Shown: in pieces, positions 35,811 through 38,300 of the stretch
Layout: each line of letters opens with the position of its first letter
How positions within the stretch are numbered: position 1 is the first letter of the stretch
DNA from: Blastocatellia bacterium
GTDB taxonomy: Bacteria > Acidobacteriota > Blastocatellia > UBA7656
Reading direction: 5' to 3'
Length of the DNA: 64,000 bases
NCBI GenBank assembly: GCA_963765495.1
Contig: CAVXWP010000004.1
Span: forward strand, 256,001 to 320,000
The notes under the pieces: model-generated
Told to the model about the DNA's origin: nothing
The model's input: only the letters and a program-made list of their open reading frames with translations
The model's database searches: none
Translations under genes and position numbers: made by a program

Positions 35811-35942
35811 AAAAGCGCTCCATAAGATACGGTCCCGAGATGCGAGCCAATGCGGTCGCTCGATGCTATATTCTACTTGTTAGGACGTAGGCGAACAAGA
35901 AACAGTTCGCGTCTGTGTAATCACGATCAGGACGGTTTTTAT

Positions 35943-36578
35943 ATGAATGGTTGGGAACAGACTCCGTTTAAGGACGCGCTCGAAACGGTGGCGGGCAATT
36001 TTGGGTTGATGCCGCTCACTTCGTTGCAACTCGATCAACTGGCAAAACATTTCGAGATGCTTATCAGGTGGAATCGTCGCATGAATCTGACGCGGATAAC
36101 AGACCCCGAGCAGGCGGCGAGGCTCCATTACGCGGAATCGCTTTTCGGTGGCCGCTTCATCGGACGGGCTACCAAACTGCTCGACATTGGCGCGGGCGCG
36201 GGATTCCCTTCTGTTCCACTTGCCGTACTCAGACCCGATATTCAAATCACGGCAATCGAGGCAAATCAAAAGAAATCTCTGTTTCTGAATGAAGTGAGAG
36301 ATGCGCTCGCGCTTGAGAAATTCTCGGTCACGAGAAAAAGATTCGAAGACTTCGACTGGTCGGGCTATGACCTGTTGACCAGTCGGGCGCTTGACCGCGC
36401 CGAATCGGTTTTTCTCTCGGTCACAAAAAGGCTCGGCCCGCATCAACGGCTCATGCTCTATTGCTCGCCCGATCTGGCAAACGCGCTCAAACAGGAGAGC
36501 GGCATTGAAATCAGGCTCGAAATCCAGCCTGTTCCCCGCGCAGAATCCCGTTCGATAGCGCTCTTTTCACGCTCATAA
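35943..36578 (+). CDS. rsmG: 16S rRNA m7G527 methyltransferase
   Basis: WNRRMNLT, HYAESL, LDIGAGAGFP, KKSLFL and TSRA. Confidence 0.92.
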   Translation: MNGWEQTPFKDALETVAGNFGLMPLTSLQLDQLAKHFEMLIRWNRRMNLTRITDPEQAARLHYAESLFGGRFIGRATKLLDIGAGAGFPSVPLAVLRPDIQITAIEANQKKSLFLNEVRDALALEKFSVTRKRFEDFDWSGYDLLTSRALDRAESVFLSVTKRLGPHQRLMLYCSPDLANALKQESGIEIRLEIQPVPRAESRSIALFSRS

Positions 36579-36718
36579 ACGCAGGGAAAATATAATCGGT
36601 CAAAAGAGAGAAAATCGGTGATGGAATATAGTCAAACTGAAGTGGCTTTTTTTTCAAAAATACAAGTATTTACCCGAAAAATGGCCCAAAATAACGGTAA
36701 CTTGACAAATGATATGTA

Positions 36719-36733
36719 TGGCACGGGCATTGC
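36719..36733 (+). promoter_or_regulatory. Sigma54 (-24/-12) promoter
   Basis: TGGCACGGGCATTGC, an exact TGGCAC-N5-TTGC match. Confidence 0.8.
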
Positions 36734-36744
36734 GATAGTTGATA

Positions 36745-36954
36745 CCGGAAGCTTGAGACACCTGAGGGTGCTCTCTTCGGGCTACCATCGCAACGTCGAG
36801 CAAACGCGCGCGCGCGCAGGATGCCTTCTTCAAGGATCGCCGAGGGCCTCACCCCTGCAGGCGACAGAAGGCAGACTAACCGCGCCCGCGTCAAACCGAG
36901 TCAGGACCCTCTCACAAAGATTCGGCGATGTGGTTGGTAGCCCGCTTTCTTTTT
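36745..36954 (+). ncRNA. Candidate structured small RNA of unknown family
   Basis: Nested stems CGGGCTACC/GGTAGCCCG, ATCGC/GCGAT, ACGCG.GCGCG/CGCGC.CGCGT, TGCCTTCT/AGAAGGCA and TCGCC/GGCGA; 5' hairpin; T-tract end; no credible ORF. Confidence 0.7.
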
Positions 36955-36966
36955 AAACAAAAAATC

Positions 36967-37005
36967 TGACAGGATTAACAAGATTTAGATGGATTTGACA
37001 AGAAT
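36967..37005. repeat. Half copy of the nonamer repeat family (ACAGGATTA)
   Basis: TGACAGGATTAACAAGATT.. matches the left arm at 61011. Confidence 0.65.
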
Positions 37006-37010
37006 CTCAT

Positions 37011-38300
37011 TTAACCTGCTGAGATTTTTTCAAGCCCGTCGAGGTAAGGGCGCAAGGCTTCGGGGATGACGATGCTGCCGTCTTCCTGCTGATAGTTCTC
37101 AAGTATCGCAAGCCACGTTCGCCCGATAGCCAGACCCGACCCGTTCAGTGTGTGCGCAAACTCTGGCTTTGATTTCTGCTCGCGGCGAAATCTGATCTGC
37201 GCCCGTCGCGCCTGAAAGGCTTCGCAATTCGAGCAGGAAGATATTTCTCGATATGTATTCTGACTCGGCAGCCATACTTCGATGTCGTATGTCTTTGCCG
37301 CCGAAAATCCCATGTCGCCGGTCGAAAGCACTATTGTGCGATAGGGCAACTCAAGCGCCTCAAGCACCGCTTCCGCATCGCGCGTCAAAGCATCGAGTTC
37401 GGCGTAGGATTCTTCCGGTCGAGTGATCTTTACCAGTTCCACCTTGTCAAATTGATGCTGCCGGATAAGGCCGCGCGTGTCCTTGCCATAGCTTCCCGCT
37501 TCGGACCTGAAACATGGCGTGTAGGCGGTCATCTTTATCGGCAACTGCGAGCCGTCAATTATCTCGCCCGCGTAGATATTTGTGAGCGGCACTTCGGCAG
37601 TCGGGATCAGATAGAAATTGCGCTCATCGGTGAGCTTGAACAGATCGCCCTCGAATTTCGGTAGCTGGCCCGTGCCAAAAAGCGTGTCGGAATTGACTAT
37701 GAACGGGGGCACAACTTCTCTATAACCGTGCTGCTTTGTCTGGAGATCGAGGCAGAAGTTTATGAGCGCGCGTTCAAGGCGCGCACCCGCGCCCGAGAGA
37801 ATCGAAAAACGCGCGCCCGCTATTTTGGCGGCGCGCTCAAGATCGAGTATTCCAAGCGAGAGGCCCAGGTCTACGTGGTCGCGCACATCAAACGCGAAAT
37901 CGCGCGGCGTACCCCACCGCTTCACTTCCTGATTGGCCGATTCATCCGCGCCAATCGGCACGCTTGCATGAGGCAGGTTGGGAAGCGTGGTCATCATCTG
38001 GTTCAACTCGCCTTCGATCTCGGCAAGTTCCGCCTCGGCGGTCGTTATCTGGTCGCCAAGCTCGCGCACGGCCGCTCTTCGACCTTCGGCCTCTTCCTTC
38101 TTTCCGGCCTTCATCAGCTTGCCTATCTCCTGGCTTTCGCTGTTGCGGGTGGAATTCAGATCATCGCGCTTGCTTATGAGCGCGCGGCGGCGTTTGTCGA
38201 GCGTCGTAAAACGGTCAAGCGCGTCTGGAGAGACACCGCGATCTTCGAGCTTGTTCCTTGTCGTATCCAGATTGGCGCGAACGAAATTGATGTCGAGCAT
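37011..38300 (-). CDS. serS: Serine--tRNA ligase
   Basis: [30 protein letters not shown] and HTLNGSG. Confidence 0.98.

Follow-up and report, generated by a model that had tools for sequence, protein, structure and literature searches.

Genetic organization of the locus

The locus lies between the convergent genes rsmG and serS in a 64-kb window, the window being the whole stretch of Blastocatellia DNA that was analysed; the coordinates of its features are collected in Table 1. A preliminary description of the same DNA had reported an exact sigma-54 consensus between these two genes, directed into a structured region, and the consensus was recovered there on the plus strand.

The upstream neighbour is not constant. 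Across 32 loci it is rsmG in 15, a divergent M20 peptidase gene in 13 and another gene in the remaining 4. Downstream, a convergent serS was found in all 30 genome-collection loci having downstream DNA, with a small intervening gene in one of these (L038), and in 49 of 50 metagenome loci; taken together, 79 of 80 loci show the RNA gene and serS in a convergent, abutting arrangement. In 25 of 49 metagenome loci the serS reading frame has not yet closed where the RNA match ends, its stop codon overlapping the U-tract tail of the RNA, and the spacing is as large as 381–502 nt in 6 of the 49. The spacer in the window itself measures 56 nt and carries a separate hairpin (36993-37035). When judged by eye from the sequence, family f5 has a terminator-like hairpin immediately 3' of the serS stop. 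A pattern search of 930 nt per locus found no sigma-54-like promoter beside serS in families f2, f4 and f5.

Table 1. Features of the rsmG–serS intergenic locus and its flanking genes (positions in the window)
Feature	Position	Strand	Remarks
rsmG (GidB)	35850..36578	+	Pfam GidB match; upstream neighbour
Upstream repeat 1, CGGTCAAAAG	36597..36606	+	candidate bEBP site
Upstream repeat 2, GTCAAACTGA	36631..36640	+	candidate bEBP site
Sigma-54 promoter, TGGCACgggcaTTGC	36719..36733	+	exact TGGCAC-N5-TTGC; GG 36720-36721, GC 36732-36733
RNA (~205-210 nt)	36745..36954	+	predicted start and end
P1, 5' strand, GGAAGC	36747..36752	+	pairs with GCUUUC 36944-36949; within the 13-nt 5' block GGAAGCUUGAGAC
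P2, 5' hairpin (GAGACACC-UGAG-GGUGCUCUC)	36755..36775	+	
P3, 5' strand, basal long helix	36779..36800	+	partner 36921-36943
P4, apical rod of variable length	36804..36891	+	comprises helices 4-7
Apical-loop motif CCUCACC	36847..36853	+	predicted mostly unpaired
Conserved 3' junction block CCGAGUCAGGACCCUCUC (P5 region)	36896..36913	+	core ACCCUCUC at 36906-36913
P3, 3' strand	36921..36943	+	partner 36779-36800
3' tail GCUUUCUUUUU	36944..36954	+	P1 3' strand and U-tract; presumed terminator tail
serS	37011..38300	-	Pfam tRNA-synt_2b and Seryl_tRNA_N; convergent neighbour

Promoter and upstream repeats

The exact sequence TGGCAC-N5-TTGC occurs at one site in the whole window. Shuffled windows contained a mean of 0.14 such sites, and because at least one was present in 13 of 100 shuffles the lone exact promoter is weak evidence; the case is carried by conservation. 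GGCAC-N5-NTGC or a near variant was found at a constant distance from the 5' block of the RNA in each of the first 15 homologs, and promoter elements at a fixed distance from this block were present in all 31 full-length genome-collection loci. The strict form was found in 51 of 55 metagenome loci, the remaining four differing by one or two changes. If near variants are included, the -24 and -12 elements are retained in every copy.

All but one of 32 unique homolog loci have a tandem pair of GGTCAAA repeats upstream of the promoter, and in 30 of these 31 the repeat-to-repeat spacing is 31–33 bp. Typically set 32–33 bp apart, repeat 1 lies at about -120 and repeat 2 at about -88 relative to the promoter GG, with variants shifted by approximately one helical turn: repeat 2 was placed at -86 to -90 in 26 of 31 loci, at -77 in three and at -99 in one, and in the remaining locus it was mis-picked. 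Since the distances cluster at -77, -88 and -99, helical phase is kept. Of 53 metagenome loci whose upstream DNA was long enough, 49 also had the pair, and it is retained whichever upstream gene is present. Phased tandem repeats of this kind are as expected of a site for an enhancer-binding protein (bEBP), and the pair is considered a candidate for one. It lies approximately 80–150 bp from the promoter and keeps to one face of the helix, which fits the arrangement of sigma-54-dependent small RNA genes.

The composite of both repeats has a single occurrence in the 7.3-Mb genome. A regulon search of the window's genome with this composite motif, alone or upstream of sigma-54-like promoters, returned the present locus and one unconvincing site. 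The genome contains one rpoN (one Sigma54_DBD match, 204 bits) and 41 matches to the sigma-54 activator domain PF00158, 31 of them scoring at least 111 bits. The closest PF00158 match on the contig lies about 51 kb from the RNA gene, and no activator gene is adjacent to it.

Extent and predicted structure of the RNA

The RNA is predicted to start approximately 12 nt past the GC of the -12 element and to end at the T-tract; the covariance model built for it, R1, matches 36743-36956 with 155.2 bits. The plus strand from 36735 to 36954 folds at -93.2 kcal/mol (z = -4.35), and none of 200 shuffled sequences was equally stable. The fold of the minus strand is less exceptional (-92.4 kcal/mol, z = -2.4), 2 of 200 shuffles being equally stable. 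The 5' hairpin and long rod leading to a T-tract that had been drawn in the preliminary description were reproduced by this fold, which terminates in GCTTTCTTTTT (36944-36954). The predicted molecule is rod-like and has two three-way junctions. Conservation of its parts was assessed in two alignments, A2 with 32 sequences and A3 with 63 distinct rows, mostly from metagenomes.

The 13-nt 5' block GGAAGCUUGAGAC, which contributes the 5' strand of the closing helix P1, is invariant in 32 of 32 sequences. Paired cells make up 89% of P1 in A2 and 95.6% in A3, although support for this helix is modest because the variation is mostly one-sided. The 5' hairpin P2 is 100% paired in A2, where six of its eight pairs never vary and two vary on one side only. 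In divergent genera G-C and A-U pairs of P2 become G-U (GAGGC/GCUUUC), which is compatible with the plus strand only. A hammerhead-like CUGAUGA in the P2 loop was considered and rejected by eye, as the loop varies (UGAU, UGUU, UGAG, UUUC). An isolated P2-like hairpin precedes ORFs in two other records (L027, and G012:C116 with 27.8 bits). The window's genome contains four loose-pattern matches to such a hairpin, including the RNA itself, vs. about one expected by a rough estimate, and this was not taken as enrichment.

Two-sided changes affect 16 of the 23 pairs of the basal helix P3 in A2 and 21 of the 23 in A3. The sub-helices of the apical rod P4 covary in both alignments, and the rod is shortened in the 173-nt forms of the RNA (L017, L040). 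The apical-loop motif CCUCA[CU]C was found in 28 of 40 unique sequences with a mean unpaired probability of 0.93, and is retained in the most divergent genera and in G008; of the 12 sequences lacking it, most show a loop of the GCCGCAUAGCC type, whereas in the short forms the loop is missing altogether. Within the 3' junction block all 32 sequences share the succession GAG-CAG-ACCCUCUC unchanged, bar two variable positions; its core ACCCUCUC, found in 39 of 40 unique sequences, has a mean unpaired probability of 0.66. A tail of the GCUUUCUUU type is kept in most homologs. A simple terminator scan called no canonical terminator at the 3' end of the RNA, where the T-tract comes after the long-range P3 helix and not after a short hairpin. 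In one genus, represented by G008, the promoter, repeats, loop and 3' motif are kept and the 5' module is different.

Covariation, strand and coding potential

Across the proposed structure, 89.9% of the cells were paired in A2, vs. 39–48% when the partners were slid, and 33 of 64 pairs had changed on both sides. The corresponding values for A3 were 93.8% and 48 of 64 pairs. For neither alignment did any of 500 shuffles reach as high a number of two-sided pairs, but these controls overstate independence because the alignments and the structure were built from the same related sequences and A3 was fitted to the model. Doubt about the strand had been raised from a few G-U pairs that seemed to fit the minus strand better. 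G-U cells outnumber A-C cells by three to one (177 vs. 58), which settles the question for the plus strand.

The statement that the region holds no credible ORF stood with a qualification. A frame of 112 codons (36618-36956), without a Pfam match, is open in the window; among 15 homologs the distance between the conserved 5' and 3' anchors takes all three values modulo 3, and in five of 32 homologs the longest stop-free frame of the plus strand falls to 36–44 codons. The region is therefore not coding, and a protein-coding reading was rejected.

Distribution

By blastn and with model R1 the RNA is single-copy in the window's genome. The possibility of a dispersed repeat, mentioned in the preliminary description, was rejected, as there is one copy per genome. 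Within the window's family (class Blastocatellia), R1 had a single match in each of 49 of the 53 genomes; among the high-quality genomes of that family the count was 39 of 42. No match was obtained in five genomes of the sister family, in 116 genomes from nine other families of the class, or in 149 genomes outside the family in a sample of the phylum. The RNA was also present on 55 metagenome contigs. It thus occurs in essentially every genus of one Blastocatellia family, and is best explained as a single-copy, vertically inherited gene specific to that family of soil Acidobacteriota. The synteny with serS that is shared inside this single family may be plain inheritance.

Relation to known RNAs

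No Rfam family matched the RNA, as judged at the gathering threshold across the window and in 14 homolog loci, and from the matches listed up to E = 10 in 36500-37100; Csr/Rsm, Qrr, GlmY, GlmZ, CrcZ and Y RNA families were absent from the latter. No published description of the RNA was found in the literature searched. The same searches, at the same thresholds, gave no match to Acido-1 (RF01686) or Acido-Lenti-1 (RF01687), which are presented in PMC2864571 as candidate ncRNAs of Acidobacteria; the likeness to the present RNA is that these are orphan ncRNA candidates from the same phylum. The claim of an undescribed structured RNA under a sigma-54 promoter has thus held up, with promoter, RNA, structure and strand all conserved and the Rfam families suggested for comparison (6S, Acido-1, Acido-Lenti-1 and Csr/Rsm) giving no match. 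A Y RNA of the Ro60-bound type was also rejected, PF05731 (TROVE) having no matches in the genome.

Likenesses of kind were found with several well-characterized RNAs. The Qrr sRNAs of Vibrio depend on sigma-54 and LuxO, serve an enhancer-binding protein of the response-regulator type as its main output and act in trans; they are gammaproteobacterial, about 100 nt long with four short stem-loops, and are present in several copies. They share with the present locus a stand-alone sRNA gene, a -24/-12 promoter and upstream activator sites (candidate sites here), whereas the RNA described here is rod-like, about 205 nt long and single-copy, has no adjacent activator gene and shows no sequence or Rfam similarity to them. 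GlmY and GlmZ of Enterobacteria (sigma-54 and GlrR, about 150–200 nt, with upstream activator sites) are of the same size class and likewise combine a sigma-54 promoter with upstream activator sites, again candidates in our case. GlmY acts through protein mimicry and not by pairing, titrating RapZ. The present RNA differs from this pair in its fold and phylum and in the lack of an Rfam match, and no RapZ-type partner was identified. CrcZ and CrcY of Pseudomonas, driven by sigma-54 and CbrB, act as sponges; CrcZ is about 400 nt long with repeated A-rich motifs and titrates Hfq/Crc. The likeness lies in the sigma-54/activator type of ncRNA, as judged here from the promoter sequence, and the difference in the lack of a repeated motif array. 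The RsaE/RoxS RNAs of Firmicutes, about 100 nt long and not sigma-54-dependent, bear C-rich UCCC/CCCC motifs. They have no homology to the present RNA, but its predicted exposure of pyrimidine-rich loop motifs complementary to Shine-Dalgarno regions resembles theirs, and they served as the model for the mechanism proposed below. The gene is assigned to a known kind, the sigma-54-dependent sRNA genes, as a new RNA family within it, the assignment being one of kind and not of homology.

Proposed mode of action and alternatives

The segment 36745-36954 of the plus strand is, with high probability, a conserved sigma-54-dependent noncoding RNA gene. Sigma-54 RNA polymerase would transcribe it from the -24/-12 promoter, with activation by an enhancer-binding protein presumably bound to the two GGTCAAA repeats, which precede the predicted start by approximately 113 and 145 bp. 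The transcript is predicted to fold into the closing helix P1, the invariant 5' hairpin P2 and the 23-bp basal rod P3, the last opening to a three-way junction that joins the variable apical rod P4 and the conserved junction block P5. Its 3' end would be the U-rich tail, which borders on the stop codon of the convergent serS or overlaps with it. The RNA may serve as a trans-acting riboregulator through which a dedicated sigma-54 signalling circuit exerts its effect.

How such an RNA might act is a matter for more cautious wording. Two exposed pyrimidine-rich motifs, CCUCACC in the apical loop and ACCCUCUC at the junction, bear the anti-Shine-Dalgarno core CCUC; through them the RNA could pair with target mRNAs at their purine-rich ribosome-binding regions, perhaps assisted by Hfq, which is encoded in the genome (PF17209, 93.8 bits). 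Action by base-pairing is put forward tentatively, at somewhat less than an even chance, and the full explanation, gene and pairing mechanism together, is held with equal reserve. The argument from the motifs is weak because any CU-rich motif trivially matches ribosome-binding sites. In a crude search of the window's genome, which gave 1535 scattered exact complements of at least 11 nt, the longest of 16 nt and without consistent context, no convincing target was recognized; none of the complements of 13–16 nt lies at a credible start site, and one of 14 nt beside an ATG was discarded since only a 31-codon frame follows. A duplex of the RNA with the serS leader was calculated at -47.6 kcal/mol vs. 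a mean of -58.6 for random windows, an uninformative result that does not single out this leader; the method ignores intramolecular structure. The strongest conservation lies largely in paired or junction sequence, namely the non-covarying P2 stem and the invariant 13-nt 5' block, a pattern that protein-bound or tertiary-folded RNAs show more typically than seed-type sRNAs do.

The main rival to base-pairing is a protein-binding RNA, whether decoy, sponge or RNP scaffold. A protein partner would recognize it at the invariant P1/P2 junction and at the P5 block, and would be titrated or assembled when the RNA is made from its sigma-54 promoter, as with GlmY–RapZ or CrcZ–Hfq/Crc. The concentration of conserved sequence in the junctions and in P2, while P3 and P4 covary freely, points in this direction, as may the size of the predicted rod with its two three-way junctions; the isolated P2-like hairpins before ORFs in L027 and G012:C116 hint at a stand-alone module. 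Yet such hairpins are not enriched in the window's genome by our rough estimate, the whole 5' module has been replaced in one genus, and neither CsrA nor Ro60/TROVE was found in the genome, so this reading is judged rather unlikely, if worth keeping in mind. Two further readings had been offered in the preliminary description. The CsrB/Rsm-type sponge, which would bind CsrA through GGA loops, was suggested by three GGA strings in the window's copy; these were found at the positions given (CAGGATG at 36817, CAAGGATC at 36831, CAGGACC at 36902), but they are only partly unpaired in the minimum-energy fold, reading '.((..((', '....(.((' and '.......', respectively. This idea fails because no CsrA was found (PF02599, no matches in a genome 97.9% complete) and because the GGA motifs are not kept. 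Among 32 homologs CAGGA[UAC]G is confined to the window's own copy, and A(N)GGA is missing from 21; the string at 36902 is CAGAACC in most copies, and each RNA holds 1–5 GGA strings in total, with no match to a Csr/Rsm family in Rfam. The sponge is considered effectively refuted. The other reading, a 6S-like RNA polymerase decoy, possibly for the sigma-54 holoenzyme, draws on the rod-like form, the length of about 200 nt and the large internal loop, features shared with 6S RNA (RF00013), and some bacteria have two 6S RNAs. A 6S role is nevertheless highly improbable, because a canonical 6S lies elsewhere in the genome (RF00013 at G000:C2:347817-348004, 46.8 bits), and 28 of 31 relatives likewise have a 6S match at a separate locus, among them 17 of the 18 that belong to the family. 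The present RNA fails the RF00013 model in 36500-37100 even up to E = 10, as do the 14 homolog loci when scored at the gathering threshold. It has a 5' hairpin additional to the 6S fold, and in the proposed structure the region likened to a two-sided bubble forms a three-way junction in which the conserved block lies on one side. No mimic resembling UGGCAC or UUGC was seen in its sequence, and it is restricted to a family whereas 6S is near-universal in bacteria.

Other alternatives concern serS. Since the RNA gene and serS face each other end to end, serS transcripts must enter the antisense of the RNA gene. The element could thus act in cis, with sigma-54 activation lowering or processing serS mRNA through polymerase collision or RNA duplex formation. 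The constancy of the convergent serS, against a varying upstream neighbour, favours such an effect, as do the 25 loci with a stop codon in the U-tract, which leave no room for a separate serS terminator; the f5 family, by eye, has its terminator-like hairpin right past the serS stop. Antisense action alone, however, leaves the compensatory changes, the conserved loops and the G-U bias of the plus strand unexplained. The wide spacing in 6 of 49 loci, the gene inserted in L038, and the window's own 56-nt spacer with its hairpin also speak against it, and synteny within one family can be plain inheritance; a purely cis-acting role is regarded as improbable. Equally doubtful is a joint arrangement, an excludon-like switch on serS under sigma-54 control, in which the tail-to-tail overlap would let a signal, through a dedicated enhancer-binding protein, throttle or reprocess serS mRNA by convergent transcription and a 200-bp RNA duplex, while the RNA also acted in trans by pairing or by protein capture through its invariant junction modules. 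That no independent RNA gene is present, and that the region is instead a DNA element, a coding frame or a fold of the serS 3' UTR on the minus strand, is very unlikely. The open 112-codon frame, the stable fold of the minus strand and the probable passage of serS transcripts across the region could be read in that way, but the frame is neither conserved nor matched in Pfam, the excess of G-U over A-C cells favours the plus strand, the promoter and phased repeats are conserved on that strand, and the element is single-copy and no dispersed repeat. The preferred reading is still a sigma-54-dependent RNA gene whose product may act by base-pairing.

Significance

Acidobacteria are among the most abundant soil bacteria and, to our knowledge, almost nothing is known of RNA-based regulation in them. 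From sequence alone the locus is unusually complete, combining a phased candidate activator site, a sigma-54 promoter, a covarying RNA and two conserved exposed motifs. The RNA is a ready-made Rfam family and a way into one of the sigma-54 signalling circuits, of which these genomes have approximately 31; for the present its importance is moderate. The constant tail-to-tail arrangement with serS provides a testable case of possible antisense coupling and, if the excludon-like reading were true, an environmental signal would control an essential aminoacyl-tRNA synthetase gene.

Homologs and distribution

By blastn the RNA gene was found once in the 7.3-Mb genome of the window, with relatives in 14 of 24 genomes of the same family and in none of 16 outside it. 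One-genome-per-species contigs were scanned with a 5'-block pattern, giving 33 loci: 28 titled Blastocatellia bacterium, one Candidatus Onstottus arcticum (also Blastocatellia), three uncultured Clostridia (two sequence-identical to other loci of the family) and one Gammaproteobacteria with the 5' hairpin alone. After removal of 14 duplicates, 32 unique full-length sequences were aligned (A2), and a covariance model (R1) was built from this alignment. R1 gave one match (155 bits) in the window's genome; the gene is conserved and single-copy, not a dispersed repeat. Matches were obtained in 49 of 53 family genomes (39 of the 42 of high quality) and in none of 5 genomes of the sister family, 116 of nine other families of the class or 149 phylum-sample genomes from outside the family. 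One of the four missed genomes (G008) carried the promoter, upstream repeats, CCUCACC loop and a ACCCUCUC-like motif beside serS; its 5' module differed from other copies, and a smaller search scored it at 32 bits. Scanning metagenomes yielded 55 more contigs, and R1 matched every one of them (99–214 bits).

The Gammaproteobacteria-titled MAG (L027:1520-1548, minus strand) held a 29-nt match to the 5' block and P2 hairpin, standing alone and lacking the sigma-54 promoter and 3' motif; some 60 nt downstream is an ORF with, by eye, a signal-peptide-like N-terminus. A second, weak R1 match in one family genome (L075, G012:C116:4060-4146, 27.8 bits) proved to be a P2-like hairpin (CUUGAGACGCCUGAGGGCACUCUCUU); an ORF whose ribosome-binding site is strong (GGAGGAGG) lies about 80 nt downstream of it. 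These two cases hint that P2 may be an independent module; P2-like hairpins were not enriched in the window's genome.

Promoter and upstream repeats

The exact sigma-54 consensus reported between the convergent rsmG and serS was recovered in their 432-bp spacer as the sole TGGCAC-N5-TTGC site in the 64-kb window. Shuffled sequences held 0.14 such sites on average and 13 of 100 held at least one, so the lone site is weak proof. Among homologs, GGCAC-N5-(N)TGC lay 13–14 nt 5' of an invariant GGAAGC at 15 of 15 loci and at all 31 full-length loci of the genome collection; of 55 metagenome loci, 51 had the strict form and four had variants.

The pair of repeats was found upstream in 31 of 32 loci, separated by 31–33 bp in 30 of these, and in 49 of 53 metagenome loci. 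The distance from repeat 2 to the promoter GG was 86–90 bp at 26 loci, 77 bp at three and 99 bp at one, values that differ in one-helical-turn steps. The repeats were kept whether the upstream gene was rsmG, a divergent M20 peptidase gene or another, and their composite occurred once in the window's genome. One rpoN was encoded there; strong sigma-54 activator domains numbered about 31, and none adjoined the RNA gene. Promoter and repeats are arranged as is standard for sigma-54 promoters that depend on an activator: a protein would bind the repeats, transcription would start at about 36745, and the RNA gene would depend on sigma-54.

In homolog loci a conserved GCGGTAGCTTATCAAC-like motif was also seen about 150–200 nt upstream of the RNA promoter, adjoining the divergent M20 peptidase gene (e.g. 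L006, L009, L015, L019, L020, L022, L023, L025, L026, L030, L038, L042, L044, L048); it may serve the peptidase gene as a leader element or regulatory site.

Features of the RNA locus and helices of the RNA
Feature	Position	Strand	Description
rsmG	35850-36578	+	Pfam GidB
Upstream repeat 1	36597-36606		consensus TCGGTCAAAA; tandem with repeat 2
Upstream repeat 2	36631-36640		consensus GTCAAACTGA; tandem with repeat 1
Sigma-54 promoter	36719-36733	+	TGGCACgggcaTTGC; exact TGGCAC-N5-TTGC
P1			5' GGAAGC paired with 3' GCUUUC
P2			5' hairpin, invariant
P3			basal rod, 23 bp
Junction			three-way; 5' strand A-rich
P4			apical rod, variable
P5			conserved block CCGAGUCAGAACCCUCUCUACGG
Looser GGATT-type repeat	36985-37002		gatttagatggatttgac
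Hairpin AAUCUCA...UGAGAUU	36993-37035	-	across serS stop codon
serS	37011-38300	-	

Structure, strand and coding test

On the plus strand, 36735-36954 folded into the 5' hairpin and long rod of the preliminary description, with a terminal GCUUUCUUUUU (−93.2 kcal/mol, z = −4.35, 0 of 200 shuffles equally stable), and separate folds of all 32 sequences shared one architecture. Paired cells in A2 amounted to 89.9%, versus 39–48% with partners slid, and both sides had changed in 33 of 64 pairs; none of 500 shuffles reached any measure. In A3, where metagenome and divergent copies were fitted to the model (63 distinct rows), the values were 93.8% and 48 of 64 pairs, including 21 of 23 in P3. These controls overstate independence, as the sequences share ancestry, the structure comes from these very sequences and A3 was model-fitted; the signal is large nonetheless.

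The strand had been left in doubt, a few G-U pairs seeming to fit the minus strand better, which folded at −92.4 kcal/mol (z = −2.4). Over the homologs, G-U cells exceeded A-C cells by 177 to 58 (108 to 51 in P3–P5), so the folded RNA lies on the plus strand, and P2 changes in divergent genera (GAGGC/GCUUUC) were G-U on that strand only. A coding region was rejected: the 5'-to-3' anchor distance covered all residues modulo 3, stop-free frames were interrupted in several homologs, and the 112-codon frame in the window had no Pfam match. The statement that no credible ORF is present thus holds as to coding, although that frame is open in the window.

Relation to serS

A convergent serS lay downstream in 30 of 30 genome-collection loci with downstream DNA (a small gene intervening in one, the N-terminal domain alone detected in another) and in 49 of 50 metagenome loci. 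In 25 of 49 metagenome loci the serS frame had not yet reached its stop codon where the RNA match ended; the stop lay inside the U-tract of the RNA, so that serS transcripts of these loci necessarily run into the RNA gene antisense. Elsewhere spacings reach 381–502 nt. Plain inheritance within one family may account for this arrangement, or else a functional coupling may, which stands as a rival explanation and is the most novel one considered.

Between the RNA and serS the window has a 56-nt spacer, and many homologs lack one of this kind. In the window's genome, serS may be terminated by the hairpin across its stop codon, which surfaced through a chance-level mir-216 match. Runs of GGATT-type short repeats stood 3' of the RNA, before serS, in several genera (TTTTGGATTTTAGATTTTGGATT; GCGGATTGCGGATTGCGGATTGCC; L003, L007, L066, L068, L069). 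At L007 (genome G022) serS was seemingly split into a 99-aa ORF, the N-terminal domain, and an adjoining 202-aa ORF with no Pfam match; a frameshift or assembly error could be responsible.

Known RNA families and mode of action

Rfam gave no match in the window at gathering thresholds, five chance-level matches (eukaryotic or other) in 36500-37100 at E up to 10, and none in 14 homologous loci. Acido-1 and Acido-Lenti-1, described as RNA motifs of Acidobacteria (PMC2864571), were among the models that did not match the RNA gene. No description of such an RNA was found in the literature searched; that the RNA is undescribed, as first proposed, is supported on both counts.

The two specific roles first suggested fared worse. 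A CsrA sponge is excluded for practical purposes, no CsrA having been found in the window's genome and the GGA strings being unconserved. A 6S-type polymerase decoy is unlikely, since this genome has a canonical 6S RNA at another locus, as have 28 of 31 relatives, and the architecture of 6S differs from that of the RNA gene. That 6S RNA (G000:C2:347817-348004, outside the window) scored 46.8 bits against an Rfam cut-off of 46.4, and several of the relatives' fell just under it, so RF00013 captures the 6S RNA of this class poorly. A Y RNA was excluded as well, since a search of the window's genome gave no Ro60/TROVE protein.

Both exposed conserved motifs are pyrimidine-rich and contain CCUC: CCUCACC in the apical loop, present in 28 of 40 sequences with an unpaired probability of 0.93, and ACCCUCUC in the junction, present in 39 of 40 with a probability of 0.66. 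Hfq is encoded in the window's genome. The most economical reading, offered tentatively, is a trans-acting base-pairing riboregulator, made on the command of a dedicated activator, whose CCUC motifs would pair with purine-rich ribosome-binding regions. Crude target searches in the window's genome gave nothing convincing. The invariant 13-nt 5' block, the P2 stem that never covaries and the conserved junction block argue instead for a protein-binding or tertiary-folded RNA, a reading that we hold to be less likely than base pairing. Activator-commanded synthesis, as proposed for the riboregulator, is the likeness to Qrr, GlmY and CrcZ, regulatory RNAs of Proteobacteria. Sequence-level support for the RNA gene is unusually complete, and the gene appears to define a new family within a known kind of RNA, the sigma-54/bEBP-dependent regulatory RNAs.
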